From a virus (Duplodnaviria; Heunggongvirae; Uroviricota; Caudoviricetes), in IMG/VR virus record IMGVR_UViG_3300033156_001279, positions 13,069 to 77,068 of that record: a stretch of 64,000 nt of DNA; one strand, given 5' to 3'. Shown piece by piece: positions 5,729 to 24,624 of the stretch. The notes beneath the pieces were generated by a model. That model ran no database searches, was not told the origin of the DNA, and saw only the letters and a program-made list of their open reading frames with translations. Both the position numbers and the translations under genes were made by a program. Within the stretch, counting starts at the first letter, position 1, and every line of letters begins with the position of its first letter.

Positions 5729-6826
5729 CTATGGTTGGGACCAAGAACTTGAACTCGAACTTGAGGGAGATACTGAACTGGATGAAGATTCACTAGAAGA
5801 ACAAGAAGAACTAGATAAGGATGTAATATAAGTTTCCCCTTCATAGTGGTCTTCGGTATTTCTAACTTCTATTTCTATGCTTCCGAAATCTGGGTCATAA
5901 TCTACAACAAAAGTTGGATTTTCAGTAACAAATCCTTCTGGAGAAGTATCTATTCCTCTATCAGTTAAATGGAAACTTGGGATTTTAATTCGAATTTCTT
6001 CCCTTGAGCTGTTACCTATTTCCTCACCTATGAAAGAAACTATCATCGCTCTGTGAGTTTGGTTTTCATGAGCTGCCTGCTCTGTTGTATCCTCGAAGAA
6101 AAGAGTGTAATCTCCACCTATCTCAAGTTGCCCCATTGAAATTTGGGCTGGAGAAGTAGAACCCGAAACATACTGTGCCTCGGCATTATTGTTAATTGTA
6201 AGTGTAAAAGCAGTAAGTTTTTTGGGAGTACTCTTTGCAGCCGAACTCAAAGTATCTCCGAAATAGATATTTGCATCCTTAAAAGCCAATACATTCTCCT
6301 CGGTTATGTCTAAAGTTCCAGCACCAGCTACAGGTTTTTTGCTTAATATCCCAGCAGTCAATTCAACCCAACCATCGCTAAAACTAATCTCAGCGGTATT
6401 TACCGTACCGTAATGATATTTTCGAATATTTTCTCCACCTGTAGTTTTCTCAGCCGTATCATAAACATTTAAGCAAAGAGTTCTCGGTGGATTTGAAGCT
6501 TTACGAGTAAATTTATGAAGATAGACATTACTCTCTTGCTGAACTCCTGTAACTGTTCCAGTCCCCAAGGCTGGAAATAATAAATAAGGGGCATTCTTCG
6601 CATCCAAAAGGATAGTAATATCTCCTTCACCTCTCTCTCTCGCAACTACCGAACCCCAAGCTCTCTCTCTGATTCCCTTAGCTGCTTCATCATCTAAAAC
6701 TTCTACTACGTTATGAAGGCTTTGTGAAGTATACGGAAGATACTTTTTGGGAGTATCGCCCCCCGTTCCTGCAGAAGTTTCAAGATTAACTCCTACCCAA
6801 CCACGTCTTCCAATTGAAACACTCAT
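5729..6826 (-). CDS. major tail (tube) protein with C-terminal Ser-rich extension
   Basis: 365 aa, immediately upstream of the chaperones. The C-terminus is SSSSCSSSESSSSSVSPSSSSSSSWSQP. Confidence 0.4.
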   Translation of the reverse strand: MSVSIGRRGWVGVNLETSAGTGGDTPKKYLPYTSQSLHNVVEVLDDEAAKGIRERAWGSVVARERGEGDITILLDAKNAPYLLFPALGTGTVTGVQQESNVYLHKFTRKASNPPRTLCLNVYDTAEKTTGGENIRKYHYGTVNTAEISFSDGWVELTAGILSKKPVAGAGTLDITEENVLAFKDANIYFGDTLSSAAKSTPKKLTAFTLTINNNAEAQYVSGSTSPAQISMGQLEIGGDYTLFFEDTTEQAAHENQTHRAMIVSFIGEEIGNSSREEIRIKIPSFHLTDRGIDTSPEGFVTENPTFVVDYDPDFGSIEIEVRNTEDHYEGETYITSLSSSSCSSSESSSSSVSPSSSSSSSWSQP

Positions 6827-8974: not shown

Positions 8975-9076
8975 AATAGTTCTTTTGTCACTATGAGTAG
9001 TTGGACTTTATTTCATCTTCTTTTTAGATGAAACTGGCACAAAGCGATGCCACATAATAAATTAACTTATTAATTC

Positions 9077-9105
9077 AATATAAAATCTAAATCAGTTAAG
9101 GTCAA
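9077..9105 (-). promoter_or_regulatory. candidate sigma70-type promoter (minus strand): -35 TTGACC, 17-nt spacer, -10 TATATT
   Basis: The reverse complement of 9077-9105 reads TTGACC-N17-TATATT. Sits upstream of the 8009-8974 gene. Confidence 0.3.
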
Positions 9106-9383
9106 GTGTTCAACCTAATTCTTCCAGGTTTTGTAAATAATTTAGCCTTTTCTTCTTTAGTCATTAATCTTATCCTTTTTTCCTGAGTAGAAAGTCTGGT
9201 TCTATCTATTTGAGCACAATATTTTGATACTAAAATCGTTCTTCCTTCTTTAGTAGAAAGTTCTGTTCTTCCTTTTGGAAGACGAAAAATCGGAATATAG
9301 CCATCATACCGAACATTTTTATCTGAATATGTATGATAAGCAGAACTATATTTGATATATCTTTCAGAATTAGAATTTGACAT
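9102..9383 (-). CDS. hypothetical protein (93 aa, basic)
   Basis: ORF with internal RTELSTKEGRTIL / RTRLSTQEKRIRL repeats. Confidence 0.2.
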   Translation of the reverse strand: MSNSNSERYIKYSSAYHTYSDKNVRYDGYIPIFRLPKGRTELSTKEGRTILVSKYCAQIDRTRLSTQEKRIRLMTKEEKAKLFTKPGRIRLNT

Positions 9384-9384
9384 T

Positions 9385-9543
9385 TTACTTAAACTCTTTT
9401 AAAAGCTCATCTATTTCCGCCAATCTTTTCTGAAAACCCTGCTTCAACATTTCTAATTGTTCTTTTCTATATCTTCGCTTTCTTTCAGTAGTTTCTATGA
9501 CTTCTATAGTTTTGTCATCAATTTTTGTAATTTTTTTTGCCAT
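9385..9543 (-). CDS. small coiled-coil protein (52 aa; not in ORF track)
   Basis: ATG at 9543 (reverse complement). Translates to MAKKITKIDDKTIEVIETTERKRRYRKEQLEMLKQGFQKRLAEIDELLKEFK, stop at 9385-9387. Confidence 0.3.
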   Translation of the reverse strand: MAKKITKIDDKTIEVIETTERKRRYRKEQLEMLKQGFQKRLAEIDELLKEFK

Positions 9544-9574
9544 ATTTCTTAATCTATTATTGTTTATTGACCTT

Positions 9575-12575: not shown

Positions 12576-13508
12576 CTAGTGGGTCAACCTTTCTAATTTT
12601 TCTTCAAGCCATTTCACTTTCATAAAATTTCTCAAATCAAGTTTACTTAAATAACAATATTTTAAAAATTCATTAAGAATCGTTTCTCTAGATTCCAAAG
12701 CTCTTCTTTCATGTAATTTGCCTAATTCGTTATCCTTGAAGTAGCCACTCATAGGCACCATAAGTCCAGTATACCAATTCTTATCAAACCATTTTCCATG
12801 CACAACTGCTATCCTTTCTTCTGTTTCACTTAATAATACTCCATTCTTTTTTATTATTCTGGTATTAGGTTTGACCCCAAAGTGATGAATCTGGGAAAAA
12901 AGATAAGGAGGCATGCAAATCATTTTTTCAGTTTTCCTCATCTTAATCCCTAAAATATTTAGATATAAAAAATCATCAAAACTATCTACTCGCTTAGATT
13001 TATAAAGGGCACTAAACCAATCTAAATCTTGTGGACTCAAAAAAATAGGAGCAGTAGTATGAATTAAATAATGAGGATATTCCTCAACTCCCAAATCACA
13101 TTTATAAATCTCTTGATGTTTTTTAGTAAATGAAATGTGCATCCCATTACTTCCAACAATTATCAATCCTTTGGAAGCAGCTAAAAAAAATCTTGCTACA
13201 TCATTAACAAAGAACATATCGGCATCTAACAAGCATACAGCATCATACTCTTTTCCAATTTCATAAGCTATCCGAAATCTTTCAATAGCGGTTCCTTGGA
13301 CTTGATGATTTATCCTTGGTTTAAATATTCGAATATTAAAACTAAAAGTTTCCTGAGCTTTCTTTAAATAATCTTCAGGAATATCAAAAGAAACCAGAAG
13401 GAAATCTTCCTTATGGCTATGAACCTCCAAACTATTCAATAAAGCATTCAAACCAGCTAAATAACTTTTAGAAGCTCCTGTTAAAAATGCAAATTTACTC
13501 TTTTTCAT
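12576..13508 (-). CDS. nucleotide-diphospho-sugar glycosyltransferase-like (DxD)
   Basis: 310 aa with a DAD motif (AVCLLDADMFF). Paralogous to 15831-16757. Confidence 0.35.
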   Translation of the reverse strand: MKKSKFAFLTGASKSYLAGLNALLNSLEVHSHKEDFLLVSFDIPEDYLKKAQETFSFNIRIFKPRINHQVQGTAIERFRIAYEIGKEYDAVCLLDADMFFVNDVARFFLAASKGLIIVGSNGMHISFTKKHQEIYKCDLGVEEYPHYLIHTTAPIFLSPQDLDWFSALYKSKRVDSFDDFLYLNILGIKMRKTEKMICMPPYLFSQIHHFGVKPNTRIIKKNGVLLSETEERIAVVHGKWFDKNWYTGLMVPMSGYFKDNELGKLHERRALESRETILNEFLKYCYLSKLDLRNFMKVKWLEEKLERLTH

Positions 13509-14175
13509 AGAATTGCTTCTTCAAATAATCTTTATATTGAAAATCTTTTTTAGTTTTAGACTTCCATCTCAACCAATCTTCAAATTGTCTTTTATTCGAC
13601 TTCCATTTTAACCAATTCTCATATTGTCCTTTTTTCCGACTCCTGCTGTCGCCGATATGAATACAGACTCCATTTTTCTCATAATCAAGAACAGCTGTCT
13701 TAAAACCCTTAAAAGCGACAGAGAATCGACGTTCGCACTCCATACTCTGAAAATCTCCTGCATCTTTACGAAGTTTAAGTAGAGTGCTCCTTCTGATTAT
13801 ATGAGGATTATGGGTCCAATGTCCACCTGTGATGAAACCTCTCTTAATTTTCTCTAAATATCTTACATTAGTCTGACCATCACCCTTTTTTCTTAATCTC
13901 ACCATGCCAACTTCAGGATGATTATCTAAAATTTCTATAGCGTCCTGAACCCAATTTCCTTTTTCTAAAAATAACCAGTCATCCTCGCACTCTAAAACAT
14001 ACTCCCCTTTTATTTTATTTAATAAGAAGGCTCTGCCTTCCCCAATAGTTTTATCATGATTGTAAATTATCATTTCCCAATAGGGATAGGTTAGAGTTTC
14101 AAGCAAGGAGGAAATAGTGGTTTCAAGAAGTTCATATCGATTAGAGGATAGAATTAAAATAGTTAAAAGTTTCAT
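13495..14175 (-). CDS. glycosyltransferase family 2-like
   Basis: N-terminus LTILILSSNRYELLETTISSLLETL resembles the GT2 opening (I..ivPtyN......l.Sl..Q). Confidence 0.4.
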   Translation of the reverse strand: MKLLTILILSSNRYELLETTISSLLETLTYPYWEMIIYNHDKTIGEGRAFLLNKIKGEYVLECEDDWLFLEKGNWVQDAIEILDNHPEVGMVRLRKKGDGQTNVRYLEKIKRGFITGGHWTHNPHIIRRSTLLKLRKDAGDFQSMECERRFSVAFKGFKTAVLDYEKNGVCIHIGDSRSRKKGQYENWLKWKSNKRQFEDWLRWKSKTKKDFQYKDYLKKQFYEKE

Positions 14176-14939
14176 TTTAAATTTTTTAAGAATTCTTTCA
14201 CTTGTCCTTTCTTAAAATTATTGATATCTATTTTTGGAATACTCTTTCTAGTATAAGTTTTTAAAGGATGTAGCTTTTCAAGATATAACAATCTTTCGGG
14301 CATCACAGATAAAGCTACCACAAATGGCCCTGAAGCAACTGTGATAGCAGCAAAACTATGTTGGATTAAACCAATTAAACTGGAAATCTTAGCTTGACAA
14401 CCCCTGACTGAATTATCAATAAAGTCATATTTTTTATTTTTAGGATTGTGCCAACAATGTTCAAAATGAACTTCAATCGGAATCTTTCCAAATTCCTTGA
14501 TTTCTTGCCATATTTGTTTTGCAATTTCTTCAGGACAATTTACTGAATTTGGCAAAGCTGTTCCCATGAAATGACAAGCTACAAAAGGACTTTCGAATTT
14601 TGGTAAATCTATAACTTCTAGATTTGGAGGTTCAATTCCCATTTCTTCTCTACAACACTTTTCTAATTTTGTTTCTTCCGAACCTTCAGCCATGGGAAAA
14701 TTCAAACTAAATATCAAATCATAATCCTGAGAATCTTTATTTTTTTCATCACCCCATATTTCTTCTTGCCCACTTTCAACATACAGATGAAAATCAATTT
14801 TTGGATAATCTTTTTTCAGTTTCTCATAAGCACCCAACCACATTAAAAGGTCTCCAAATCCATGGCCCCAGCGAATTAACACTTTTTGGCCATCTTTTAA
14901 ATAATCGGTTAATTTTCGAGTTTTAAAATCATCAATCAT
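14172..14939 (-). CDS. GT9 (heptosyltransferase)-like protein, short
   Basis: ...LIRWGHGFGDLLMWLGAYEKLKKDYPKIDFHLYV resembles the GT9 N-terminal signature (GD.l...p....lk..yP). Confidence 0.3.
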   Translation of the reverse strand: MIDDFKTRKLTDYLKDGQKVLIRWGHGFGDLLMWLGAYEKLKKDYPKIDFHLYVESGQEEIWGDEKNKDSQDYDLIFSLNFPMAEGSEETKLEKCCREEMGIEPPNLEVIDLPKFESPFVACHFMGTALPNSVNCPEEIAKQIWQEIKEFGKIPIEVHFEHCWHNPKNKKYDFIDNSVRGCQAKISSLIGLIQHSFAAITVASGPFVVALSVMPERLLYLEKLHPLKTYTRKSIPKIDINNFKKGQVKEFLKNLK

Positions 14940-15879
14940 TTTTTTCTTTTTCTTTCTCTTTTAAGATTTCCTCACGACTTGCTATGATATAGGGAACTGA
15001 TTTATATCCCAATTCTTTTGCTGCCAAAAATCTATGTCCTCCTTCTATCCCTCTAAATTTAAATTTTCCCCTTTCGCAAGATTGACAAATTAAGGGTTGT
15101 CTAATTCCCAATTTTTGAATTTTCTTTTTTAATCTATCAACTTTTGTTCTCAATATGTCATCCCATTCATTTCGAAGTTTTCCTCCTTTAGGAGCTGGAA
15201 TCCTATCCAAATTTATAAAATGAACCTCTTTACCTCTAAAACATTGTCGAGTATCTCTCTTATCTCGGGAACAACGAAAGAAAGAATAAGCTTCTTTTGG
15301 ACCTCTTTTATTCCCGCTCTTGCCTAAGTACTTATAATCATGAAAAGAAGTATTATCTCTTACTTCTTCAAATTGTTTTTTTACATCATGAAATGAATTA
15401 GTTTCGAAATACAAAACTTCCCGGGTATGCCTATCTATCCAATCTATCATTTCCTTTCCATTCTTTAGATGTGATAAGACAGCACAAAAAAAGACCACAT
15501 CAAACTTTGGACAGAAATTCTTGAATTCTTTGCTTTCTATATCCGTCTGCCAAAACTCAACATCTAATCCCTCTTCTTTTGCCAAGGCTTCTGCAGCTTG
15601 GACAGAATCAAGAATATCAACTCCCAAAACCTTACTCGCACCTCTGCGTTTTGCTTCTAAGGCTATTAAACCATTATTGCAACCCAAATCCAAAACAGAT
15701 TTTCCTTTTATATCATTCCACTTTATTAAATCAAAACGTGTTCTATCTCTGCCACGTGGATTAAAAAGAAACTGATTTCCTTTCCAAACTTGCTCATGAC
15801 TGCTAAATTTTTTGAATTCAGGATTCATAATTAAAAGATTAATTTTAAATTCTGGGGAAAATCCCAATCTTCTTTCCAA
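14932..15879 (-). CDS. class I SAM-dependent methyltransferase fused to a ParB/Srx-like C-terminal domain
   Basis: SAM motif I VLDLGCNNGLIALEA. C-terminal GIEGGHRFLAAKELGYKSVPYI matches the ParB N-terminal GxxRxxA motif. Confidence 0.5.
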   Translation of the reverse strand: MERRLGFSPEFKINLLIMNPEFKKFSSHEQVWKGNQFLFNPRGRDRTRFDLIKWNDIKGKSVLDLGCNNGLIALEAKRRGASKVLGVDILDSVQAAEALAKEEGLDVEFWQTDIESKEFKNFCPKFDVVFFCAVLSHLKNGKEMIDWIDRHTREVLYFETNSFHDVKKQFEEVRDNTSFHDYKYLGKSGNKRGPKEAYSFFRCSRDKRDTRQCFRGKEVHFINLDRIPAPKGGKLRNEWDDILRTKVDRLKKKIQKLGIRQPLICQSCERGKFKFRGIEGGHRFLAAKELGYKSVPYIIASREEILKEKEKEKND

Positions 15880-16757
15880 TCTATCTTATGATAAAGTTCA
15901 GTATTAAAATATTTCGTGAATTCCCAAAATAACTTAACATTATTGAAAGCAATCTCTTGATTTTCCCTCTCCTTAACACCATTAATATATTTTTCACAGA
16001 TACTTTTTATCCACCATCTTCTATGAAAGGAAAAGATTCGGTCACCTCCTCTATGCTCTCCCAAATACCACTTATTATTTATATTTCTTCTAGCTAACTT
16101 TACATGATAGTAATGAGATTGAACCCAACGAGAATTCGAAAGAACAAAAATATCTTTCATCATATTAAGATTAATTAAAGCATTATTCAAAGAACACATA
16201 TCTGAACCAGGCTCTTCAAGCATTCTTGAAGGAATCTTATTAAATATCTTAGGTTTGAAAAACAATGGCATGCAGTGTAAAGGAGGCGAAGCCGCTCCAT
16301 GATAAGGATAATCAGGATGCCAATCATATTCCTGATTTGAATAATCATTATTTGGCATCAGAATTTTTTCAGTTTCATCCGCAATTTCAAAATAAGGCAT
16401 TATATTATTCACAATTTGCATATCAGCATCGAAGATGGCTACCGCATCATAATCCTGAAGCTCATTAATAGCATAAAAGTAGCGATAAAATTTGTAATAC
16501 CAAGCTGATTCCTTTTTTCTTGGATGTTTTGGATAATTATCTTTTTCTTTTAGCTTTTCAAGTTCAATTTTTTTTAAATTCGGAAAAACATCTCCTAAAG
16601 TATTCAAATATTCGATTACTTTCTTGCTTCCATAAAGCAAGTGAAACTCAACATTAATATTATAATATCTAGTAGCATTGAGTAAGCCATTAACCCCAGG
16701 AATGTGTCCGCTAGAAGTGACTATCAAAGCATATTTTTTATTTTCTGAATTCTTCAT
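15831..16757 (-). CDS. glycosyltransferase-like (DxD), paralog of 12576-13508
   Basis: AVAIFDADMQIV DxD motif. Similar N-terminal region to 12576-13508 (..L.TSSGHIPGVNGLLNA / FLTGASKSYLAGLNALLNS). Confidence 0.35.
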   Translation of the reverse strand: MKNSENKKYALIVTSSGHIPGVNGLLNATRYYNINVEFHLLYGSKKVIEYLNTLGDVFPNLKKIELEKLKEKDNYPKHPRKKESAWYYKFYRYFYAINELQDYDAVAIFDADMQIVNNIMPYFEIADETEKILMPNNDYSNQEYDWHPDYPYHGAASPPLHCMPLFFKPKIFNKIPSRMLEEPGSDMCSLNNALINLNMMKDIFVLSNSRWVQSHYYHVKLARRNINNKWYLGEHRGGDRIFSFHRRWWIKSICEKYINGVKERENQEIAFNNVKLFWEFTKYFNTELYHKIDWKEDWDFPQNLKLIF

Positions 16758-17550
16758 TGGATTTCAACATTTGTTTAATTAATTTTGGATCATATCCTGC
16801 CTTTTCTGAAAATCGAATCAAAGCACTAACATCTTTGGGAAAGCACTTTCCACCAAATCCAGGTTTATCCTCAAAAACCGCAGTGTGTAATTTTTCAACT
16901 CTCGGATCTAAAGCCCATAATTCTCTTACTTCCCCAAAGTTTAAATCCAAAGAATCACATATTTTTTTCATCTCATTTGCCCAGGTGACTTTCATAGAAC
17001 CCCAACAGTTCGTCATGTATTTTGTCATCTCTGCAACTTTTGAACAAACAAACCTATATTCCTTAGATGGCCCCAAAATCGGAAGAATCAAATCGTATAT
17101 ATATTTAGTATCTTTTTTCTTCCCGCCTAAAATTAAAAAAGGAGTTTCAAGAGGATCATAATGAAATTTGAACGGACTCCAGTATTTATTTTCACCAATA
17201 AATTCTGGACTAAAGACTATGTGTTTTTTATATTTATCACTCAAATATTTGGTGGTTCCAGGTGGAATTGTTGACTTAATTAAAATTGGAGTTTCAATCC
17301 AGCTTACCACCTCTTCTACTATTGAAGTATCACATTCACCATCTTCTTTCATGGGAGTCGGAACACAGATAACAGCCAAAATAGAGTTATTAACCTCTTT
17401 TCGGCTTCCAATCTTTTTAGGTTCATCATATTCAAAAACCTCATATTGATTGTTATAAGACCATAATTTCTTTTGAGCAGAACCAACATATCCCTCACTT
17501 CCTATAATCGCTATTTGTTTTAAGTTTCCAGCCATAACCTTTGCCACCAT
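16738..17550 (-). CDS. UDP-glucose/GDP-mannose dehydrogenase-family protein (short)
   Basis: Rossmann IAIIGSEGYVGS, ICVPTP motif, and catalytic-Cys motif GGKCFPKDVSAL. At 270 aa it is shorter than typical family members. Confidence 0.5.
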   Translation of the reverse strand: MVAKVMAGNLKQIAIIGSEGYVGSAQKKLWSYNNQYEVFEYDEPKKIGSRKEVNNSILAVICVPTPMKEDGECDTSIVEEVVSWIETPILIKSTIPPGTTKYLSDKYKKHIVFSPEFIGENKYWSPFKFHYDPLETPFLILGGKKKDTKYIYDLILPILGPSKEYRFVCSKVAEMTKYMTNCWGSMKVTWANEMKKICDSLDLNFGEVRELWALDPRVEKLHTAVFEDKPGFGGKCFPKDVSALIRFSEKAGYDPKLIKQMLKSNEEFRK

Positions 17551-18461
17551 TTAAATGCCTGAATCAAATTTTCAAATACTGTATTTTTCAAAAAATCAAA
17601 ATTAAATTGCAAAAGCATCTCCTTATAAGTTCCAATCCTAACTTTCTCAAATCCTTTATCAACAAATTTATAAAATTCATCAGAATGTTTATTCATCGCT
17701 ATCTCCTCTTGAGCATCTTCTCTCGCATTTATTTTAGTATCATGATAAATAATCGGCAAACCGTAAGAAATGCTTTCCTTTCGTTTTTCTAAAAATTTTT
17801 GCATTATATATCCTCCCCAAATGTCATCATGTCTTGAAAAATAATAGTCTCTATATTTAAAATTCGGTAAGAAAAATAAAGCAGGAATTAGTTCCTTTCG
17901 ACAGATAAAATTCATTCCAGAAAAAGGTATCTTACCTACTGCAATTTTATTATCATCTATCAAAGTATTCTTAGGTGGATTATAAGAAATTCTATCTTGC
18001 CCATTAATATCCAACTCATTCTCCCACAAACCCATATTTATCATAACTTTTCGTTTCCTTTGAGAGTATGGGAAACCTCTTGGATACCAACCTATCTTAT
18101 ATAAAGGATTTTCCCAACCATAACCCTCTTTGTCTAATGCTTCTGAATGTTGTTCAACAAAATTCTCCAAACAAATGCAATCAGAATCTAAGCTTATAAT
18201 TCTGTCATAATTTTTCTTGTAAGCTAGCCAATGACCAAAATTCTTACAAGAAGAACTATGATGAAATTGCTTGAAACCTTCATAAAATCTACCCAATTCC
18301 TGCTTTTGTCGCTTATAATCATAAACCTCAATATTTTTTCTCTTAATATTAATTTTTCCATTACTATCATCTACTATAATAATTGGAACATCAGGTAAAT
18401 TCCTAATCCATTTTTTCGATGGCTGTTTATGAACTGCGCTTACAACTACAAATTTAGTCAT
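17520..18461 (-). CDS. hypothetical protein in glycan island (possible glycosyltransferase)
   Basis: 313-aa ORF. Called on context only. Confidence 0.2.
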   Translation of the reverse strand: MTKFVVVSAVHKQPSKKWIRNLPDVPIIIVDDSNGKINIKRKNIEVYDYKRQKQELGRFYEGFKQFHHSSSCKNFGHWLAYKKNYDRIISLDSDCICLENFVEQHSEALDKEGYGWENPLYKIGWYPRGFPYSQRKRKVMINMGLWENELDINGQDRISYNPPKNTLIDDNKIAVGKIPFSGMNFICRKELIPALFFLPNFKYRDYYFSRHDDIWGGYIMQKFLEKRKESISYGLPIIYHDTKINAREDAQEEIAMNKHSDEFYKFVDKGFEKVRIGTYKEMLLQFNFDFLKNTVFENLIQAFKWWQRLWLET

Positions 18462-18478
18462 AACTCTTTAAATCTCAA

Positions 18479-19531
18479 TTATAAATCCAACCATTTTTGA
18501 TTCTCAGGTCTTATCATCCATTCCACACATTTTCTTAATGACTCTTCTAAATTTAATTTTGGTATCCAGCCTAATTTTTTTAACTTCTCACCTGATAATG
18601 CATATCTAAAATCATGACCGGGTCTTAAAACATGATAATCTTTAAATTCTATCTCATTTTCCTTTAATTTTCTGCCCTGTATAATTTGGGAAATCTTATT
18701 GGCCATCCAAAGAGCATCTTTTTCCTCTCCAACTATGTTATAACTTTCTTCCCTTTTTCCATTAAATAACAAGAAGAAGAGACCATCATAGATATTTTTA
18801 GTGAATAACCAATGTCTTTGAGAGATTTGATTGGGTTTGCCATGAATTATAACTTTTTCCTTTCTTAAAATTTTCCTTACAACCATTGGAACAAACTTCT
18901 CAGGATGCTGTCTTTCTCCAAATATATTCATTGAATGAACCATACAAATCGGAATCTTAAACGAATGAGCGAAAGCATATTCCATAGACCATTGTCCCGC
19001 CTTTGCTGCCGAATACGGATTTGACGGATAAAACTTATCGGTTTCCGGATGATATTCTCCTTTCTCAGCTGGTCCATAAACTTCATCAGTGTTAAAACCA
19101 ATATATTTTTTGATATTAGGTCTTGAATTTTTTATCCATTCTAATAAATTAGTGGTTCCAACCACATTACTTTGAGCAAAAGGTAAAGCGTTTTTGAGAC
19201 TTCTTTGCACATCACTTTCAGCCGCTAAATGGATAATATAATCTACTTCGCCAATCAACTTATCAATAATTGAAGAAATAGGGCTTCTTAAGTCATGATA
19301 AACAAATTTAACTCTATCCTTTTCGAGTTTCCAGTTATCAATTTCGGTTATTCTATTTAAATTCCCAGCATAGGAAAGCCTATCTAAAATCTTAATATCC
19401 CAATTGGTTTCTTTTAAGAATCCTGAAACAATGTGCGAACCCACAAAACCAGTGCCTCCAGTTATAAGCACTTTTTTTCGATTATTTTTAAGATTTTCTA
19501 ACTCTTCTTCCATAATAATATTGTTTATCAC
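18479..19531 (-). CDS. NDP-sugar 4,6-dehydratase / epimerase (extended SDR)
   Basis: Rossmann VLITGGTGFVGSHIV, NTDEVYGP, and YxxxK as NPYSAAKAG. Pattern resembles RmlB-type dehydratases. Confidence 0.55.
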   Translation of the reverse strand: MINNIIMEEELENLKNNRKKVLITGGTGFVGSHIVSGFLKETNWDIKILDRLSYAGNLNRITEIDNWKLEKDRVKFVYHDLRSPISSIIDKLIGEVDYIIHLAAESDVQRSLKNALPFAQSNVVGTTNLLEWIKNSRPNIKKYIGFNTDEVYGPAEKGEYHPETDKFYPSNPYSAAKAGQWSMEYAFAHSFKIPICMVHSMNIFGERQHPEKFVPMVVRKILRKEKVIIHGKPNQISQRHWLFTKNIYDGLFFLLFNGKREESYNIVGEEKDALWMANKISQIIQGRKLKENEIEFKDYHVLRPGHDFRYALSGEKLKKLGWIPKLNLEESLRKCVEWMIRPENQKWLDL

Positions 19532-20162
19532 TGTTCGCTATGTTTTTCCAACCTGTTATTTTCTTTAAAGTCTTACTTTCAAAATGATGCACATAACTAT
19601 CTAAAACTTCTTTAGGAGAATATCCAGAACAAGTAAGACGCTTAATATAGTCTATATCCCCTCGAGCTAGTTTAAATTTCTCATCAAAATAACCAATAAT
19701 CCTAAATGCTTTTCTTTTAATAGCAAAACAAAATAGAGGAATTCCTTTGTGTTCTCGTTCAGTATTTTTTGGAAAATTCTTAGGAAGCTTCTTTCTAGTA
19801 AAACTTGGGTAAACTAATAACGAATTAGATTTTTTAAGTTCTTTAATTAAATTATCAATGGCTAGAGGTGCAAAAATAATATCATTATTTATAACTACTA
19901 TTAGTTCTGAATCAGAAGCTTTAAGTCCTTGGTTTATTGAAGTATAAACCCAATGATTCACCTTATTTTTTATTTGTAACAGCTCAATTTCATTGGAGTA
20001 ACAGAAATTATAGACCCATTCCAGTGTTTGATCAACAGAAGCATTATCTACTTGTATCAAACGAAATTCTAATTTAGTATTGGTTTTTAGACTTCTAAGA
20101 CATTGTTTTGTAAAATCAATCTCATCTTTCGTTAAAATAACTATATCTATCTTCTCAATCAT
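19488..20162 (-). CDS. glycosyltransferase family 2
   Basis: IVILTKDEIDFTKQCLRSLKTN...VDNASVDQT, the GT2 N-terminal signature. Confidence 0.5.
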   Translation of the reverse strand: MIEKIDIVILTKDEIDFTKQCLRSLKTNTKLEFRLIQVDNASVDQTLEWVYNFCYSNEIELLQIKNKVNHWVYTSINQGLKASDSELIVVINNDIIFAPLAIDNLIKELKKSNSLLVYPSFTRKKLPKNFPKNTEREHKGIPLFCFAIKRKAFRIIGYFDEKFKLARGDIDYIKRLTCSGYSPKEVLDSYVHHFESKTLKKITGWKNIANSDKQYYYGRRVRKS

Positions 20163-21306
20163 TGAATTTTTCGAATTTATTTTTCAAATTCCTATAAGTC
20201 TCATCATCAGGAATTATTAATCTTCCACCTTTATAATACATCTTTACCGAATCCAATATTCTTTCTGGGGTAATAATTTCAAAACATCTTGGAACTTCCC
20301 CCTTATCCGTCTTAATTAGATTTTTACACTTTCCTTTTATCGAACCTCCTAACCAACAACCATCCCATTTACAACATTCCATACAACCATTGGAATAGAT
20401 ATATTGAATATGCGGATAGATTTGCCAAAGGACTCCTTCTTTTCCCCCAGCTACAACTACTGCTGGCTGTTCAAATGCAGCAGACATTTCGAATTGAAAT
20501 GAGATAGGTCCAATAGTTCCTTCAGCCCAATATCCAAGCCTGATTAATTCTCTGAGATTGGTCTTGCCAACTAAATTTAAGACTCCTTTTAAGGGAGGAT
20601 GAATATGAGCTTGATGCCCTATCTGAACTAACTTAACTCGACCATCAAAATAATTATTAAACAAATCAACAAACTCCTGCCAGCGATGATATTGTTTTAA
20701 TTCATTATCTTGTTTTCTGCCAGCATTTATAAGCCAAAATGGTCCATCCCATCCAAATTCACAATGAACTTGATTATACCAACTTTTTTCTTGCTCTGAT
20801 ATCCATAATTCTGGTTTTATACCAGTCTTTTTGATTGGAATTTCAAGTTTCTTTTCCAGTTCATGCCTGAAAGCATCTGAAAAATGCAGACCATTCCAAC
20901 CAGATTGGTGAATTTCTTCATATCCAATATTGAAAATCTCCACTCCTTCATCATTTTCATTTAAAGGACTCAATCTTGGATTATTCTCCCAAATTTCGGG
21001 AGCGGGAGATCTGATATCAATTTGATAATTTGGATAACTTTCCTTTAAATCACCAACAGCTCTGGTAAATACTAAAATATCGCCGGGCGATTGGCCTTGT
21101 CTAAGGATTACTTTTCTTTTCTTTTTAACTATTTCGGGATGAGCTTCTGCCCATAACTCCCATGGTGTTTTTGCATCAATATAATTTATTGGAAACATAT
21201 TTAAAAAGGAAAGGAGAGAATCAAGAGGTTTCTCAAGATTCTCTCCTATTTTTGGAGAAGATTCAATTATCAAAAAGTTCATCGAGGCTGATAGCAGAAG
21301 TTCCAA
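20155..21306 (-). CDS. GT9-family heptosyltransferase-like glycosyltransferase
   Basis: ILRQGQSPGDILVFTRAVGDLKESYPN and a C-terminal ...LVGKTNLRELIRLGYWAEGTIGPISFQ block resemble ADP-heptose:LPS heptosyltransferases. Confidence 0.45.
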   Translation of the reverse strand: MELLLSASMNFLIIESSPKIGENLEKPLDSLLSFLNMFPINYIDAKTPWELWAEAHPEIVKKKRKVILRQGQSPGDILVFTRAVGDLKESYPNYQIDIRSPAPEIWENNPRLSPLNENDEGVEIFNIGYEEIHQSGWNGLHFSDAFRHELEKKLEIPIKKTGIKPELWISEQEKSWYNQVHCEFGWDGPFWLINAGRKQDNELKQYHRWQEFVDLFNNYFDGRVKLVQIGHQAHIHPPLKGVLNLVGKTNLRELIRLGYWAEGTIGPISFQFEMSAAFEQPAVVVAGGKEGVLWQIYPHIQYIYSNGCMECCKWDGCWLGGSIKGKCKNLIKTDKGEVPRCFEIITPERILDSVKMYYKGGRLIIPDDETYRNLKNKFEKFND

Positions 21307-22045
21307 ATCTAGAAATTACAATTCCTGCTGCCTTGTTAGCAAGCTCCATCATTTTTCTAGGATTCCTTATTCCATTTAAAAGACAAAAAATCAGAATCGA
21401 CATTACGGTATCACCTGCACCTGTAACATCAATGACTTCTTTGACATCTGCTGGAACATTTTCAACAAACTTTCCATTCTCATAATAATCAATTCCTTTC
21501 TCAGCCCGAGTAATAAATGCTTGAGGAAAATCAGGATTTTTAGCTTCAGCAAATTCAAACTGATTAATCTTAAGAATTTCAGTTCCCTTAAAAACAGAGA
21601 GGTCTTTCTTTTTGGAGTCAACTATAGTTGCCTTACCGCCTTTTATGAATCCTTTATCATAATCTACAAAAGCAATAACTTCGAAATCACAAGGATTGGG
21701 TAATAGGATTCCTTCTAAATCTTCTGGTCGATAAACCGAAGGCTCATCTATCCTCAGTAATTGTTGACGTTGAGCTACTATTCTTGTCTTTCTCAGAGAT
21801 TGACACCTTTTGGGACTAATGATTTCGAAATCAAAATCTCTTGCAAATTCATCATCAATGATAGTAAATACAACTGGAATTATTCCCAACCCCATCAGAT
21901 TAATTGCTACATTAAGAGCTCCACCAGCTCTAATCTCTGTCCGCTCAACATCTATAATTGGAACAGGAGCTTCAGGAGAAATTCTTTCAACTTTTCCAAA
22001 ACGATATTCATCAATGAAACTATCACCGACGATAGCAACCTTCAT
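21263..22045 (-). CDS. PfkB-family sugar kinase (HldE kinase-domain-like, heptose-7-phosphate kinase type)
   Basis: DVTGAGDTVMS (the PfkB DTxGAGD motif). N-terminal MKVAIVGDSFIDEY...GGALNVA. Confidence 0.6.
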   Translation of the reverse strand: MKVAIVGDSFIDEYRFGKVERISPEAPVPIIDVERTEIRAGGALNVAINLMGLGIIPVVFTIIDDEFARDFDFEIISPKRCQSLRKTRIVAQRQQLLRIDEPSVYRPEDLEGILLPNPCDFEVIAFVDYDKGFIKGGKATIVDSKKKDLSVFKGTEILKINQFEFAEAKNPDFPQAFITRAEKGIDYYENGKFVENVPADVKEVIDVTGAGDTVMSILIFCLLNGIRNPRKMMELANKAAGIVISRFGTSAISLDELFDN

Positions 22046-22046
22046 C

Positions 22047-23030
22047 TCAGCCTCCTTTCTGAAATTGGAAGCTTCTCCTTTTCAAAGAGCTATTCTTAAT
22101 TTGTCGGATTAAATTAGTTGTTGAAAAACCTTTCAAAAGAGGAATTATTACTACTTTACCCCCCGACTTTCTTACAAAATCAGCACCAACTACTGTTTTC
22201 AAAGTATAATCACCTCCCTTAACTAGTATATCAGGTTTGATATTCTCAATCAAATTCAAGGGACTATCTTCATCAAAAATCTCAACTCTATCTACAAAAC
22301 TAATCGCTTCTAAAAGTTCTTTCCGCAATTTTTCCCCAATGATTGGCTTTCTTTTCCACCTCTTTGCTGAATCATCAGAATTAATTCCGACAATTAATTT
22401 ATCTCCAAGTTTCCTAGCTTTTCTCAGGAGATGCAAATGACCCGAATGTAATAAATCAAATACTCCATTGGTAAATACAACACTCTTTTTTCTGAATAAT
22501 GCGCTATAAATATCTTCCCTGATTCCAGATTCTGTTTCAGGATAACCAGACTTAATAAGTTTGAAACCTCTAACTTGAAAGAATAAGTCTAAACTCCGCT
22601 CTGTAAAATAATGTAAATGCTCTCCAGTCTGATATTTGAGATGTTTCCAACCATCCAAATTCTTTCCGAATGGTAAAATGGGAACGGTAACAAAAACATA
22701 ATCAGTCATTTGGAATAAGCTATCAAGTACTAAAAAATCAGGAATATGCTCCAAGACATCACAAAGAAAAATCAGATCATAATGACTATGTCTGATTCCC
22801 GTATACTGAATTGGAAAATCTCCAATATCATAAGTATCAACCACTGTACCTTTAGGCTTAAAATCTTTTAGCAGATTCAAACCCGCTCCATAATCAAGAA
22901 CTGTTTTGGGTTTTATTTCTTCAACAAAATTCCAACGCAGTTCATTAATTACTTTTGCCGTTTCCATATTCAATTTTTTCATATATTCCCAATATTGTTT
23001 TCCATATGGGAAGGAATCTCTTTTAGACAT
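22047..23030 (-). CDS. bifunctional methyltransferase-like / cytidylyltransferase-like nucleotidyltransferase (HldE adenylyltransferase-domain-like)
   Basis: C-terminal VVFTNGVFDLLHSGHLHLLRKARKLGDKLIVGINSDDS carries the HxGH motif of the cytidylyltransferase family (RfaE domain II / TagD). N-terminal SAM-MTase-like VLDYGAGLNLL...LIFLCDVLEHI. The start is placed at the ATG at 23028-23030, which is preceded by an AAAGGAGG Shine-Dalgarno. The ORF track's TTG-extended ORF runs to 23081. Confidence 0.6.
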   Translation of the reverse strand: MSKRDSFPYGKQYWEYMKKLNMETAKVINELRWNFVEEIKPKTVLDYGAGLNLLKDFKPKGTVVDTYDIGDFPIQYTGIRHSHYDLIFLCDVLEHIPDFLVLDSLFQMTDYVFVTVPILPFGKNLDGWKHLKYQTGEHLHYFTERSLDLFFQVRGFKLIKSGYPETESGIREDIYSALFRKKSVVFTNGVFDLLHSGHLHLLRKARKLGDKLIVGINSDDSAKRWKRKPIIGEKLRKELLEAISFVDRVEIFDEDSPLNLIENIKPDILVKGGDYTLKTVVGADFVRKSGGKVVIIPLLKGFSTTNLIRQIKNSSLKRRSFQFQKGG

Positions 23031-23058
23031 GTTGACCTCCTTTCTTGTTAGGAAACTT

Positions 23059-23157
23059 GGAGAGACGTAATTTCCCAACAACCTTAAGGTCTCTCCAAAC
23101 CATTAGATATCATAAACTCCTTTTAGTGAAGTCTCCTTCTAATGGTTAACTTAAGGA
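23059..23157 (-). terminator. two adjacent hairpins downstream of the major capsid gene (candidate terminator/attenuator)
   Basis: Inverted repeats GGAGAGAC...GTCTCTCC (23059-23096) and AACCATTAGA...TCTAATGGTT (23098-23157), between the MCP stop and the glycan-island start. Confidence 0.3.
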
Positions 23158-23176: not shown

Positions 23177-24121
23177 TTAGAGCGACCAATCGGGATTACA
23201 ACCGTAAGCATACTGCCACATTCCAAAGCCAACATTTCCCCTGAAATCAACTCCGAAATAGAGTTTCTTTTTCAAGAAACTATCAGTATTATCCTTAGTC
23301 AGACTATCAAAGGTAATATCTCGTCTGATTTGAAGGATAATAGGTTTAACAATTCCAGTGGTATCTATAACAGCCCAGAAATTAGTATCTACATATGGAG
23401 TAACATAAAGATCCAGAGCTCCTTTCAGAACGTTCGTTGCAAGTTTGGTTCCTTCAACCTCTGTTGGGTAGTATTGGCTATTCAGAATTTCTCGAGCAGT
23501 AAATTGCTGACTTGGATTAACTATCAAGAGATTAGGTCTAACTTCAAGTGGATTTCCCTTATCATCCACCCATTGCATCATTTCTTCAATTACAGTTTGA
23601 AGATTATCAGCAGTCAATTCCAGGTTATCTCCATTTCGTTGAGTTCCAGATTCACCTTCTTCATGAGAATCTGAAAAGAAAGCCTGACCATCATAACAGG
23701 AAATATCTTTGCCTTCAAGAATTGTTCCATCTTCTCCTGTGGTGTTATCCCCTTGGTTTAATAAGGTATATACCATTTTGCCCCAGAACCTTCCAGCTTT
23801 ATTTGCCAAATCTCTTACTCTGATATTAATCTGGCCATACTGTTCATCTTCCAATGCATCTCTATCCACAGAAATAGAACTTTCCCAAGATCGATTCCTA
23901 ATGGAGAAATGATGTTCTAAAAGACCCTGTGGAACTCTTTCGTCTACCCATTCATGTAAGTCAGGTACCGCACCCAACCAAGGATAGGTTTCTTCACTCT
24001 TGGTTGAGTTTATTCTAGTAGCAATTCTTTCCCATTCAGCTTCATGCTTTCTAAACTCTTTCATGAATGTCTTTCTCATTCCAGCCTCTAATAGTTTTGG
24101 AATATCAGATTTTACTAACAT
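23177..24121 (-). CDS. major capsid protein
   Basis: 314 aa, immediately downstream of the protease/scaffold and a small head protein. Size and composition fit HK97-fold or Mu gpT-like capsid proteins. Confidence 0.5.
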   Translation of the reverse strand: MLVKSDIPKLLEAGMRKTFMKEFRKHEAEWERIATRINSTKSEETYPWLGAVPDLHEWVDERVPQGLLEHHFSIRNRSWESSISVDRDALEDEQYGQINIRVRDLANKAGRFWGKMVYTLLNQGDNTTGEDGTILEGKDISCYDGQAFFSDSHEEGESGTQRNGDNLELTADNLQTVIEEMMQWVDDKGNPLEVRPNLLIVNPSQQFTAREILNSQYYPTEVEGTKLATNVLKGALDLYVTPYVDTNFWAVIDTTGIVKPIILQIRRDITFDSLTKDNTDSFLKKKLYFGVDFRGNVGFGMWQYAYGCNPDWSL

Positions 24122-24123
24122 AA

Positions 24124-24624
24124 TTATGCACTCTCAGAAGAGCTTGAAAATGAACTGCTTGAGAAACTAGAACTAGAAGAACTCCAAGATTTTTGAGCAT
24201 ATTCACCTATTCCACCTTGAATATCAACTTTCACAGTAGAACTATCAATGAATTTCACTACTTGTCCAACCACAAGATCATTTGTGACATCTCCTACTTC
24301 ACCAACAGTATTATCGTCTACCACAAAGACTTGATCTCCAACTACTCGTTGAGCAGCTCTAAATGCTGTAGCAAACTTGAATACTCCTCTTCTATGAACT
24401 CTGACACTTCTATCTCCACTCTTATCATTATCAGGTGCTTCAGATTTCTCTGCTGCAACCCCTACCACCACACTATTGGCGGCATCAGTTGCCGCTCTCA
24501 GATAACCATCAGCTCCAACCATAACAATTGCACCTTTGTAGATATCCTCATCTGCATAAATCTTATATCTAATCAAATCTCCCTCTTGTCGTTCAGCCTC
24601 ATAATCGTCTGTTAACGCAGCCAT
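24124..24624 (-). CDS. head protein (decoration-like) with C-terminal poly-Ser tail
   Basis: 166 aa ending SWSSSSSSFSSSSFSSSSESA. The same Ser-rich motif occurs in the 1-1972 fiber. Confidence 0.35.
   Translation of the reverse strand: MAALTDDYEAERQEGDLIRYKIYADEDIYKGAIVMVGADGYLRAATDAANSVVVGVAAEKSEAPDNDKSGDRSVRVHRRGVFKFATAFRAAQRVVGDQVFVVDDNTVGEVGDVTNDLVVGQVVKFIDSSTVKVDIQGGIGEYAQKSWSSSSSSFSSSSFSSSSESA

Follow-up and report, generated by a model that had tools for sequence, protein, structure and literature searches.

The question raised by this locus is why a phage would carry a dozen sugar-handling genes among those that build its particle, and onto what the sugars would be placed. The phage is an uncultivated tailed siphophage with a genome of ~77 kb, and the window, i.e. 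the whole stretch of DNA that we analyzed, covers 64 kb of it, leaving ~13 kb outside. Here, 12 contiguous minus-strand ORFs lie back-to-back at 12576-23081, most sharing a few bases with the gene that follows, with a Mu gpT-like major capsid gene upstream and a fibre gene downstream (Table 1), placing the island inside the head-and-tail (structural) block and not the replication block. No terminator-like site was found at the junction between capsid gene and island, and a hairpin with T-run comes after the last island gene. This layout and the gene content are directly shown. An earlier note, made from sequence alone, had described 12 co-oriented genes between the major capsid and tail fibre genes, which held, but its gene list ran to only 11 items, the RGP/GT75-like gene being omitted. 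We consider it most likely, with moderate confidence, that the island is a late-expressed cytoplasmic system that O-glycosylates the poly-Ser tracts of the phage's own virion proteins. A glycan has yet to be observed, and the host is unknown; in addition, the acceptor, the identity of the sugar, the order of transfer and the purpose of the coat (shielding from proteases or during adsorption, linker stiffening, adhesion) are all inferred.

Table 1. Coordinates of the island genes and of the neighbouring and virion-protein features in the 64-kb window.
Feature	Position	Strand	Remarks
Distal fibre/receptor-binding-like protein	1-1972	(-)	3' end beyond window; SSSSSSFSSSSFSSSS linker 920-967 between two similar domains
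Tail tube protein	5729-6826	(-)	C-terminal 30 residues (5732-5821): 22/30 Ser
YadA-head-like-repeat fibre, 982 aa as listed	9575-12523	(-)	Likely true ATG 12421, giving 9575-12421
Terminator-like hairpin with T-run	12436-12463	(-)	Between island end and probable true fibre start
GT8-like (DxD) glycosyltransferase, paralog B	12576-13508	(-)	Profile
Weak GT2-like protein	13495-14175	(-)	23.3 bits, just at threshold; N-terminal 34 residues only
Compact GT9-fold glycosyltransferase, 255 aa	14172-14939	(-)	GFGD motif; AlphaFold model
Class I SAM methyltransferase + ParB_N fusion	14932-15879	(-)	Domain match
GT8-like (DxD) glycosyltransferase, paralog A	15831-16757	(-)	Profile
Truncated nucleotide-sugar dehydrogenase-like	16738-17550	(-)	N-terminal and central domains, GGKCFPKD motif; without C-terminal domain
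RGP/GT75-like protein (reversibly glycosylated polypeptide family)	17520-18461	(-)	PF03214, E 1e-16
RmlB-like NDP-sugar 4,6-dehydratase (SDR)	18479-19531	(-)	TIGR01181 241 bits, under cut-off 365
GT2 glycosyltransferase (solid)	19488-20162	(-)	PF00535, E 4e-17
GT9-fold glycosyltransferase	20155-21201 (ORF listed to 21306)	(-)	Invariant SPGD motif, conserved Cys cluster near C-terminus
HldE-domain-I-like PfkB sugar kinase	21263-22045	(-)	DVTGAGD motif; TIGR02198
Methyltransf_23 + HldE-domain-II-like sugar-1-phosphate adenylyltransferase	22047-23081	(-)	HSGH motif; TIGR02199; likely true start ATG at 23030, AAGGAGG just before
Major capsid protein, Mu gpT-like	23177-24121	(-)	PF10124, E 5e-65; without Ser tail
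Head decoration (cement) protein	24124-24624	(-)	PF09956; C-terminal poly-Ser tail SWSSSSSSFSSSSFSSSSESA encoded at 24127-24189

With respect to the sugar, the best NCBIfam family for the kinase is rfaE_dom_I (182 bits, E 1e-53) and that for the nucleotidyltransferase is rfaE_dom_II (172 bits, E 5e-51), the next-best families being far weaker (E 1e-8 and 3e-18, respectively); a caveat is that both scores fall below the equivalog cut-offs (345 and 181.5 bits, respectively). The calls of a PfkB kinase and of a cytidylyltransferase-like domain fused to a methyltransferase-like one held, as did their assignment to the two halves of HldE, if only as closest families. The signature motifs of HldE/HldA-HldC from the Gram-negative LPS core are kept, but in the phage the two halves are separate proteins, one of which, the adenylyltransferase, also carries a methyltransferase domain, and the presumed phage product would be destined for protein, not lipid A-Kdo. 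In our favored view, the two halves would make more of an activated, heptose-type sugar available, most likely ADP-D-glycero-manno-heptose; since GmhA, GmhB and HldD are not encoded in the window, we surmise that it would be made from host heptose phosphate. Among relatives, the SDR adjoining the kinase is an HldD-like ADP-heptose epimerase (TIGR02197, 168-211 bits), and one relative also carries an FSA/transaldolase, a split transketolase and a cupin. Transaldolase and transketolase are, as inferred by homology, enzymes supplying sedoheptulose-7-P, and together with the epimerase they point to heptose. Kinase homologs in cyanomyophages adjoin a phosphoheptose isomerase gene. The earlier suggestion of a possibly heptose-based sugar is thus supported, albeit on comparative and structural grounds only.

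The transferases were examined in the same light. Neither of the two proteins described as GT9 heptosyltransferase-like has a Pfam match (20155-21306 and 14172-14939), but for both the fold held in AlphaFold models. The top structure matches of the larger enzyme (pLDDT 90.9) were WaaF, TibC and WaaC, among which TibC gave the highest TM-score (0.6) and lowest rmsd (4.6 Å); for the compact enzyme (pLDDT 94.4), all 27 matches at E<=1e-3 were TibC or WaaC, i.e. GT9 only. TibC is a cytoplasmic enzyme that O-heptosylates many Ser residues per surface protein from ADP-heptose (PMC4358343), and the conserved Cys cluster in the C-lobe of the larger phage enzyme sits at the place of the TibC iron finger. 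This enzyme is a candidate Ser-O-heptosyltransferase, its acceptor and sugar being inferred. The phage enzyme nonetheless differs from the BAHT enzymes (TibC, AAH), with which it shares the GT9-type GT-B fold, as evidenced by: 1) sequence identity of 13-15% only; 2) absence of the N-terminal beta-barrel of TibC; 3) a presumed acceptor that is disordered poly-Ser and not a beta-helix passenger domain; 4) its viral origin and pairing with a second compact GT9-fold enzyme. As for the other enzymes, the DxD pair are true paralogs (24% identity, E 3.5e-7) that we can now call GT8-like, their profile having as best PDB match the GT8 chain 5gvv (E 6e-4, weak), from GlyE, an enzyme that modifies PsrP; it also hits 6mw5, the Skp1 alpha-galactosyltransferase. 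The RmlB-like dehydratase and the MTase-ParB fusion held as called, the UDP-sugar-dehydrogenase-like protein held but is truncated, and of the two GT2s one held while the other is marginal. We postulate that the dehydratase, the dehydrogenase, the RGP-like protein and the methyltransferases would make or modify additional donors, that one or both GT9-fold enzymes would place the first sugar on poly-Ser hydroxyls, much like TibC and AAH with their autotransporters, and that the GT8-like and GT2 enzymes would extend the chain.

An alternative is that the island alters a glycan on the surface of the host, be it LPS core, capsule or S-layer, during infection or lysogeny, e.g. to block superinfection or progeny re-adsorption, with poly-Ser being unrelated flexible linkers. 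In its support, GT9 enzymes are classically LPS-core heptosyltransferases, WaaF and WaaC match the larger model about as well as TibC does, homologs are labeled 'ADP-heptose:LPS heptosyltransferase' in source annotations, and HldE-like genes occur in cyanophages. Against it, the island is flanked by capsid and fibre genes within the late structural block; no integrase/repressor module was found in the 64 kb examined of the roughly 77-kb genome; the island has no flippase, polymerase, ligase or Gtr-type membrane component; its accessory content varies greatly among close relatives; and six backbones show tight linkage between the glycosyltransferase set and poly-Ser proteins. None of the 12 island proteins has membrane-like segments, a result that is shown, but recognizing that LPS heptosyltransferases are peripheral and lack membrane helices, we do not take this as excluding the host-glycan reading. 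Overall we consider it unlikely, and of the two readings put forward in the earlier note, phage-encoded virion O-glycosylation, probably with heptose, is favored over lysogenic conversion, which is disfavored by the missing integrase in the window, the structural-block position and the soluble enzymes; this preference is comparative and structural, not biochemical.

For virion O-glycosylation, the putative acceptors would be poly-Ser sequences in three kinds of protein, namely the tails of decoration protein and tail tube and the linkers within fibres. The protein previously called a small head protein is corrected to a cement/decoration protein, with its Ser tail confirmed; the Ser tract ending the major tail protein held, the count being 22 Ser in 30 residues in place of ~25; and the identical linker in the distal fibre held, SSSSSSFSSSSFSSSS being common to this protein and the decoration protein. 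The codons for these shared 16 Ser/Phe residues differ between the two genes. This rules out a DNA repeat, and the codon differences argue for selection acting on the peptide. The fibre directly downstream of the island (9575-12421) has no poly-Ser tract in this phage, whereas in the closest relative, whose tail tube is also Ser-tailed, proteins at this position have poly-Ser domains of 140 and 560 residues. A sugar-activating pathway, glycosyltransferases and surface proteins with Ser runs together suggest that the particle is probably sugar-coated. We propose that the island is co-transcribed with the decoration and capsid genes; the outcome of the whole scheme would be a mucin-like glycan brush on head, tail and fibres.

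The distribution of island and poly-Ser, which is shown, bears on a second alternative, namely that poly-Ser forms disordered linkers or tails that bear no sugar and are characteristic of this phage group, with the island serving another cytoplasmic target (another virion-protein site, a small molecule or a host protein). All island-bearing relatives fall into one capsid clade, three subclades of which have Ser-tailed decoration proteins; none of ~45 island-less relatives (23 distinct sister-clade loci and ~22 more distant) has poly-Ser tails. Given a single origin of the island in this clade, the within-clade association amounts to one phylogenetic event. All five GT9-bearing contigs sampled from other phage backbones had poly-Ser ORFs beside the GT9/GT8 set, the longest reaching ~1,950 residues. 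For the plain-linker reading, the decoration protein lacks a Ser tail in seven distinct island-bearing relatives (their fibres lie outside the sequence examined), indicating that this tail is not required by the island; poly-Ser also lies within L027, a protease/scaffold homolog, and terminates L004, an enzyme-like protein resembling cytidylyltransferases, so the tracts are not restricted to surface proteins; and bacterial enzymes are known with poly-Ser linkers lacking proven glycosylation. Against it stand the absence of poly-Ser tracts from the ~45 island-less relatives, their presence beside the glycosyltransferases in every independent backbone sampled, and tracts of hundreds to ~1,950 Ser that are hard to account for as mere linkers. 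We regard this alternative as improbable as well.

The third alternative, that the island glycosylates phage DNA (base hypermodification) against restriction, is the least likely by far. Hypermodification of phage DNA with diverse glycans, by glycosyltransferases that the phages themselves encode, is known (bioRxiv 10.1101/2023.12.21.572611, PMC13326640), and the island has an MTase-ParB_N fusion, with three N6/N4 DNA methylase genes in the window. In contrast, the island is not in the replication block, and nothing resembling a dCMP/dUMP hydroxymethylase, TET/5mYOX or DNA glycosyltransferase was seen in the scan of window ORFs, which leaves out ~13 kb of the genome. An ADP-heptose pathway together with enzymes of GT9 and GT8 fold is not known to serve DNA modification.

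Returning to virion O-glycosylation, we found no description of such a system in the literature searched, and a virion sugar coating of this sort is not known to have been shown beyond a few mycobacteriophages and giant viruses. In mycobacteriophages (Che8, Rita and others), phage-encoded virion glycosylation has been reported (Freeman 2023, Cell Host Microbe, via PMC11256854, PMC12582341), with the phages' own glycosyltransferases thought to decorate their structural proteins as a glycan shield; acceptors in that system reportedly include the C-terminal parts of both capsid and tail-tube subunits. Here, by comparison, the major capsid protein is tail-less and the candidate acceptors are decoration protein, tube and fibres; the tracts are homopolymer-like, (S6-9 F/L/C)n, and reach ~1,950 residues in relatives; the island, flanked by capsid and fibre genes, has its own HldE-like activation (HldD-like in relatives) and GT9-fold enzymes; and experimental evidence is lacking for the present phage. 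Several dedicated enzymes, GT8 members among them, O-glycosylate the very long Ser-rich tracts of fibrillar surface proteins of Gram-positive bacteria (PsrP, Fap1, GspB) in the cytoplasm. Unlike these systems, the phage has neither a GtfA/GtfB-type initiating pair nor an accessory Sec system, and its tracts are near-pure Ser with Phe, Leu or Cys in place of SxSx dipeptide repeats. Giant viruses (chloroviruses, mimivirus fibrils) encode nucleotide-sugar synthesis and glycosyltransferases for host-independent particle glycosylation (PMC4691112), as both enzyme classes are virus-encoded here, but their hosts are eukaryotes, and they use different sugars, linkages and enzymes. The GT9-like enzyme showed no protein similarity to deposited phages. 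Distant members of its family reach Pfam PF01075 and are fused to eukaryote-type/giant-virus-type glycosyltransferase domains and to Erv1/Alr.

A minus-strand phage structural block (see the table) occupies the leftmost 35.5 kb of the window, and within it the twelve island ORFs are contiguous, most of them overlapping their neighbour by a few bases. A strong ribosome-binding site, AAGGAGG, precedes the ATG at 23030 of the first island gene, no terminator-like site was found between the capsid gene and the island, and a hairpin with a T-run (12436-12463) is positioned after the last island gene and before the likely true fibre start at 12421. Given the missing terminator after the capsid gene and the hairpin past the last island gene, the island appears to form the distal portion of the transcription unit for the head genes, a likely arrangement that we infer from sequence alone. 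The twelve-gene island, the quoted motifs and the poly-Ser tracts that an earlier note had described all held, with the ORFs contiguous and the motifs present in the sequence.

Features of the structural block and the glycosylation island, in gene order
Feature	Position	Strand	Remark
ARPP-1 protein		-	first in gene order of the block
Mu-type portal	31943-33415	-	
1568-aa protein, metallo-beta-lactamase-fold and ATP-dependent ligase domains	27122-31828	-	between portal and protease/scaffold genes
814-aa protein			follows the 1568-aa protein; homolog in one relative has a Mu-like protease domain
Cement/decoration protein	24124-24624	-	
Mu gpT-like major capsid protein	23177-24121	-	
Twelve island genes	23081 down to 12576	-	
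Methyltransf_23 + cytidylyltransferase-like domain fusion	22047-23081	-	best NCBIfam rfaE domain II, TIGR02199
PfkB kinase	21263-22045	-	best NCBIfam rfaE domain I, TIGR02198
Long GT9-like protein	20155-21201	-	ORF as listed runs to 21306
Clear GT2	19488-20162	-	
RmlB-like	18479-19531	-	TIGR01181, 241 bits
RGP/GT75 family match	17520-18461	-	E 1e-16; absent from the earlier note's list
Nucleotide-sugar dehydrogenase without C-terminal domain	16738-17550	-	GGKCFPKD motif kept
GT8-like 'DxD' paralog	15831-16757	-	real paralog of 12576-13508
Class I methyltransferase + ParB_N	14932-15879	-	
Compact GT9-like protein	14172-14939	-	
GT2 barely at threshold	13495-14175	-	
GT8-like 'DxD' paralog	12576-13508	-	real paralog of 15831-16757
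982-aa fibre-like protein		-	after the island
Head-tail and tail genes, including tube	tube 5729-6826	-	
Tape-measure-like protein		-	tail part of the block
Dit	1972-2760	-	
Distal fibre		-	extends past the window edge

The long GT9-like protein has at least 298 close metagenome homologs (60-78% identity), and a search with its family profile recovered 876 clusters (50% identity) at E<=1e-30 and 2,349 representative clusters at E<=1e-3; a tblastn search with this protein against 50,697 deposited phage genomes gave no match. We inspected six long contigs that encode it, one of which (L013) belongs to the same capsid clade as the window. Over the stretch that was fetched, the other five (L102-L106) had no detectable similarity to the window head genes; the architecture of at least two of them is clearly different, L103 being 140 kb long with the cassette placed among genes for tail fibres, and L106 having a P22-type portal. 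In all five, homologs of four window genes lie side by side, namely those at 20155 (62-71% identity), 14172 (49-62%), and 15831 and 12576 (24-53%), with a Methyltransf_23 protein upstream of the set and poly-Ser (Ser/Cys/Phe) ORFs directly beside the cassette, as exemplified by a 2,161-codon open frame in L106 (2519-9001) with ~1,950 codons of poly-Ser. As neither a kinase nor an adenylyltransferase was found nearby in two of the five (L103 and L106), the conserved unit is the glycosyltransferase set with its poly-Ser neighbours, and the sugar-activation genes are an optional add-on. It is this repeated pairing in different genomic settings that, in our view, argues most strongly for the poly-Ser tracts as substrates, with the acceptor role itself being inferred. 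Public gene calls over the poly-Ser frame of L106 sit on the opposite strand, so such proteins are probably mis-annotated systematically. The non-core island genes vary sharply between relatives, as evidenced by phosphonate synthesis and LicD in L013, radical SAM and GFO/IDH in L102, and a sulfotransferase in L103, a pattern that would be expected of a diversifying surface glycan. The set in the L013 island (13699-16496) comprises a PEP mutase, a TPP decarboxylase fragment, an Fe-alcohol dehydrogenase, a LicD-like protein and a cytidylyltransferase, which together would make and transfer a phosphonate, suggesting phosphonate-decorated glycans.

Within the window, phage-encoded glycosyltransferases and Ser-rich exposed termini on structural proteins are both present, matching the gene pattern of mycobacteriophage-type virion glycosylation. 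The decoration protein and the fibre have in common a 16-residue peptide, SSSSSSFSSSSFSSSS, of which the Ser codons differ between the two genes; it is therefore the protein sequence that is maintained, and the differing codons rule out a DNA repeat or recombination cassette as the source of this shared Ser/Phe peptide. Among ~100 loci with related capsid genes, drawn from viral, metagenome and genome collections and arranged in a neighbour-joining tree of capsid proteins, all those in which the MTase-adenylyltransferase gene immediately follows that of the capsid fall in one clade. Three separate subclades of this island-bearing clade have a poly-Ser tail on the decoration protein (ten distinct sequences, with tails of 15 to 66 residues always following a conserved (E)ESW motif), and the closest relative (L007/L098, a 76.8-kb contig) encodes a Ser-tailed tube as well as fibre proteins with poly-Ser domains of ~140, 560, 180 and 100 residues. 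None of the 23 distinct sister-clade loci that extended far enough downstream, and none of ~22 more distant loci, had a tail on the decoration protein, nor did these have a co-oriented poly-Ser ORF except for an unrelated Ser/Gly-rich segment in L086; among capsid relatives, poly-Ser is therefore confined to the island-bearing lineage. Inside the capsid clade, this association depends on one acquisition event of the island. A search with the tail tube for further genomes yielded only two contigs, one of which (L099/L101) has no Ser tail, with the region where an island would lie being out of view. In L007, an insert of ~960 bp (9050-10000) interrupts the major capsid gene after residue 49; it holds a 280-aa ORF with LAGLIDADG-like motifs (IAGLFDAEGWF, LMGFWEGDGS) and so resembles an intron bearing a homing endonuclease.

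One alternative is that the island enzymes have a different target and leave the poly-Ser tracts unmodified. The island can exist without a Ser tail on the decoration protein: the tail is absent from seven distinct decoration protein sequences of the island-bearing clade, including those of L039, L045 and L065, with the fibres of these relatives lying outside the data examined. In addition, poly-Ser lies within a scaffold/protease homolog of one relative (L027), and in two others (L004:18253-19344 and L031:19744-20835) a poly-Ser tail terminates a 364-aa protein that has a cytidylyltransferase-like region; a Ser tail on an enzyme-like protein is unexplained by the virion-surface model. On the other side stands the pairing of glycosyltransferase set and poly-Ser tracts in five of five other contigs, and we consider this alternative unlikely.

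Returning to the reading that the tracts are glycosylated, we modelled both GT9-like proteins from alignments of metagenomic homologs, and both are predicted to have a GT-B fold nearest to solved GT9 structures. For the long protein (348 residues, its real start being close to ORF residue 36; pLDDT 90.9), the top PDB folds were WaaF, TibC, Veillonella GT9 and WaaC (1psw, 4rap/4rb4, 3tov, 2gt1; E 1e-10 to 1e-7); for the compact one (255 residues, pLDDT 94.4), all 27 matches at E<=1e-3 were to TibC or WaaC, with a TM of only 0.3-0.4. Fold comparison alone worked here, as searches of PDB sequences with both proteins and the family profile returned nothing meaningful. Neither protein has a Pfam hit at E<=0.01 and hence no PF01075 Glyco_transf_9 match; there is only a weak RfaQ match (E 1.4e-4), together with a transitive link in that distant members recruited by the family profile reach PF01075 (25-77 bits). 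Across 32 homologs of the long protein, the SPGD motif that follows the first strand is invariant, as is GFGD in the compact paralog; the catalytic Asp is D13 in WaaC, and D110 in TibC (PMC4358343), with no superposition on the catalytic Asp available for either phage protein. A C-lobe insertion of lower pLDDT in the long protein bears a Cys cluster, with a CC pair conserved in the consensus and C282, C292 and C306 invariant, and TibC has a four-Cys iron finger in its C-lobe (Cys339, 342, 358, 370; PMC4358343); the two were not superposed at residue level. For the DxD paralogs, a profile built with their relatives matched the GT8 structure 5gvv (E 6e-4) and Skp1 alpha-galactosyltransferase, and neither these two nor the compact GT9-like protein had a match in Pfam, NCBIfam or PHROGs. 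As to the individual calls in the earlier note, its two GT9-like proteins held by fold, as judged by modelling and PDB fold comparison, though without a Pfam hit; its DxD paralogs held, the paralogy being real and the profile match being to GT8; one of its GT2 calls (19488-20162) held, and the other (13495-14175) only just reached threshold.

The same note had taken the kinase and the nucleotidyltransferase as the two halves of HldE. HMM annotation did place them best in rfaE domains I and II, but below the equivalog cut-offs. More precisely, the kinase scored 182 bits (E 1e-53; runner-up ribokinase, 1e-8) against a cut-off of 345, and the adenylyltransferase 172.4 bits (E 5e-51; next family TagD, 3e-18) against 181.5. 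The motifs RAGGALNVA and DVTGAGD in the kinase correspond to the GG and DTxGAGD signatures of HldE domain I, while HSGH and GFSTTNLI are the HxGH and ISSTxxI-type motifs expected of the HldE nucleotidyltransferase domain. Among relatives, an SDR after the kinase in L013, L102, L104 and L105 has as its best family HldD, the ADP-glyceromanno-heptose 6-epimerase (TIGR02197, 168-211 bits, E 1e-49 to 1e-62), and cyanomyophage homologs of the kinase adjoin phosphoheptose isomerase. Transaldolase and transketolase yield sedoheptulose-7-phosphate, the precursor of heptose; in L105, an FSA/transaldolase-type enzyme, a split transketolase and a cupin related to mannose-6-P isomerase lie within the island of a different phage backbone (7485-9787) and would supply this compound. 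Based on the HldD-like SDR, the sedoheptulose-7-P enzymes, the cyanomyophage neighbours and the GT9 folds, ADP-heptose is the best reading of the donor for the GT9/GT8 cassette family, and a likely one, with both the sugar and the formation of ADP-heptose being inferred in the absence of enzyme data. The window itself encodes no GmhA, GmhB or HldD and would therefore depend on host heptose phosphates; in place of these genes are the RmlB-like dehydratase, the truncated dehydrogenase and the RGP-like protein, and we infer that the glycan of this phage is probably mixed. Assuming a few hundred decoration and tube subunits with 15-22 Ser each, there would be ~10^4 sites per particle, which over a burst may approach the order of one cell's LPS heptose content; a demand of that order could explain why the phage would boost the pathway.

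Two further alternatives concern what else might be glycosylated. In the first, the island would modify a host glycan as in lysogenic conversion; in contrast to GtrABC and O-antigen conversion systems, it has no integral-membrane flippase or glycosyltransferase parts, as exemplified by the lack of membrane-like hydrophobic segments in all twelve island proteins and of any flippase, polymerase, ligase or Gtr-type gene, and no temperate module (integrase) was detected among the ORFs scanned. We regard this reading as unlikely. In the second, the target would be DNA; genes for hydroxymethyl-pyrimidine or 5-hydroxycytosine synthesis and a DNA glycosyltransferase were not detected in the window, nor were a hydroxymethylase or a TET-like enzyme among the remaining ORFs scanned, and we consider it very unlikely, with ~13 kb of the genome being outside our view. 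We favor, with moderate confidence, cytoplasmic O-glycosylation of the poly-Ser tracts of virion proteins by the island enzymes, with heptose as the likely first sugar. This interpretation, which the earlier note had proposed, is supported by comparative evidence; its weak points include that no glycan has been observed, that the host is not identified and that the HldE-like halves fall below cut-offs.

The closest mechanistic precedent for the GT9-like enzyme is provided by TibC/AAH (BAHT), GT9-type cytoplasmic enzymes that use ADP-heptose to O-heptosylate many Ser residues of an autotransporter (PMC4358343). The long GT9-like enzyme shares the fold of TibC by prediction; it also has an invariant Gly-Asp motif following its first strand and a conserved Cys cluster in a C-lobe insertion, where TibC has its iron finger, and these may be counterparts of the TibC features. 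However, its model starts directly with a Rossmann-like N-lobe and has no N-terminal beta-barrel (TibC residues 1-97), and identity is only 13-15%; it may therefore act like a BAHT enzyme, which by analogy is possible, without being a member of that family. BAHT enzymes form dodecameric rings and act on the beta-helix of an autotransporter; no autotransporter is encoded in the window. The closest biological precedent is virion glycosylation in mycobacteriophages, the narrow group in which glycosylation of phage particles has only recently been shown (Freeman 2023, via PMC11256854 and PMC12582341), from which the window system differs in its enzymes, in encoding its own donor pathway, in its acceptor proteins and in having acceptor tracts of extreme length. 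Gram-positive serine-rich repeat glycoproteins and the giant viruses, which encode glycosylation machinery of their own, offer further parallels. Distant GT9-like members are fused to Erv1/Alr and to glycosyltransferase domains of eukaryote or giant-virus type. Four such proteins (P0256, P0279, P0300, P0341), all of them large, combine the family domain with Mannosyl_trans3, GT34, PLOD-type GT, Erv1/Alr and methyltransferase domains, resembling giant-virus glycosylation enzymes.

No description of a phage poly-serine, heptose or virion glycosylation system like that of the island was found in the literature searched, and we surmise that it is likely a variant of phage virion glycosylation that appears widespread. 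A bolder postulate, which we lean slightly against at present, is a widespread and so far undescribed viral 'mucin' system, in which a portable cassette (methyltransferase, two GT9-fold and two GT8-like proteins) has spread among unrelated uncultivated phage backbones, often along with a full ADP-heptose branch and with hypervariable genes for sugar tailoring, phosphonate synthesis among them, and serves to O-glycosylate poly-Ser tracts on head, tail and fibre that range from tens to ~2,000 residues; particles of such phages would then wear a dense, strain-variable, heptose-based glycan brush, with its diversity under O-antigen-like selection. If virion glycosylation by such islands is true, it would be a common trait of phages in the environment (876 clusters for the GT9-like family by itself) and would bring to viruses a chemistry not known for them, ADP-heptose with Ser-O-heptosylation, otherwise from E. 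coli autotransporter systems, acting on mucin-like poly-Ser domains prone to mis-annotation by gene callers. It would also give a reason for heptose-pathway genes in a phage, make the GT9/GT8 cassette with poly-Ser tracts a simple genomic signature predicting glycosylated virions, and offer new enzymes for protein glyco-engineering. Glycan coats influence adsorption, stability, immune recognition and the behaviour of particles in mucus and sediments, and so bear on phage ecology and the design of phage therapy.

With respect to lineage, the closest capsid match in the 50,697 deposited phages is only 33% identical, and the window phage, with a genome of likely ~77 kb, therefore belongs to an uncultivated lineage. 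An attempt to assign a host by tRNAs and by the MAG labels of relatives yielded none: no tRNAs were found in the window, and the labels contradict one another, with source bins of Patescibacteria, Peribacteria, Woesearchaeota and Armatimonadota for capsid-related contigs and the names WOR-3, Anoxychlamydiales, Parcubacteria and proteobacterial MAGs on glycosyltransferase homologs, which suggests that phage contigs have been mis-binned. The combination of a metallo-beta-lactamase fold with an ATP-dependent DNA ligase domain in the 1568-aa protein, which is 80% identical to its L007 counterpart, is unusual for a head module. Upstream of the portal (33462-35496, minus strand), a Vgb-lyase-like beta-propeller protein accompanies the ARPP-1 domain protein. 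In the oppositely oriented, early-looking region are a second, partial Mu gpT-like capsid match (55326-56258, plus strand; E 2e-11) and an SPFH/Band 7 family protein (57693-58520, plus strand); N6/N4 DNA methyltransferase genes, two of them adjacent (48354-50250) and a third a short fragment (61711-62028), also lie on the plus strand. Finally, GC content rises to 0.44 at 10001-12000, within the fibre-like gene downstream of the island, vs. ~0.35 nearby, for which exchange of a receptor-binding module is one possible explanation.
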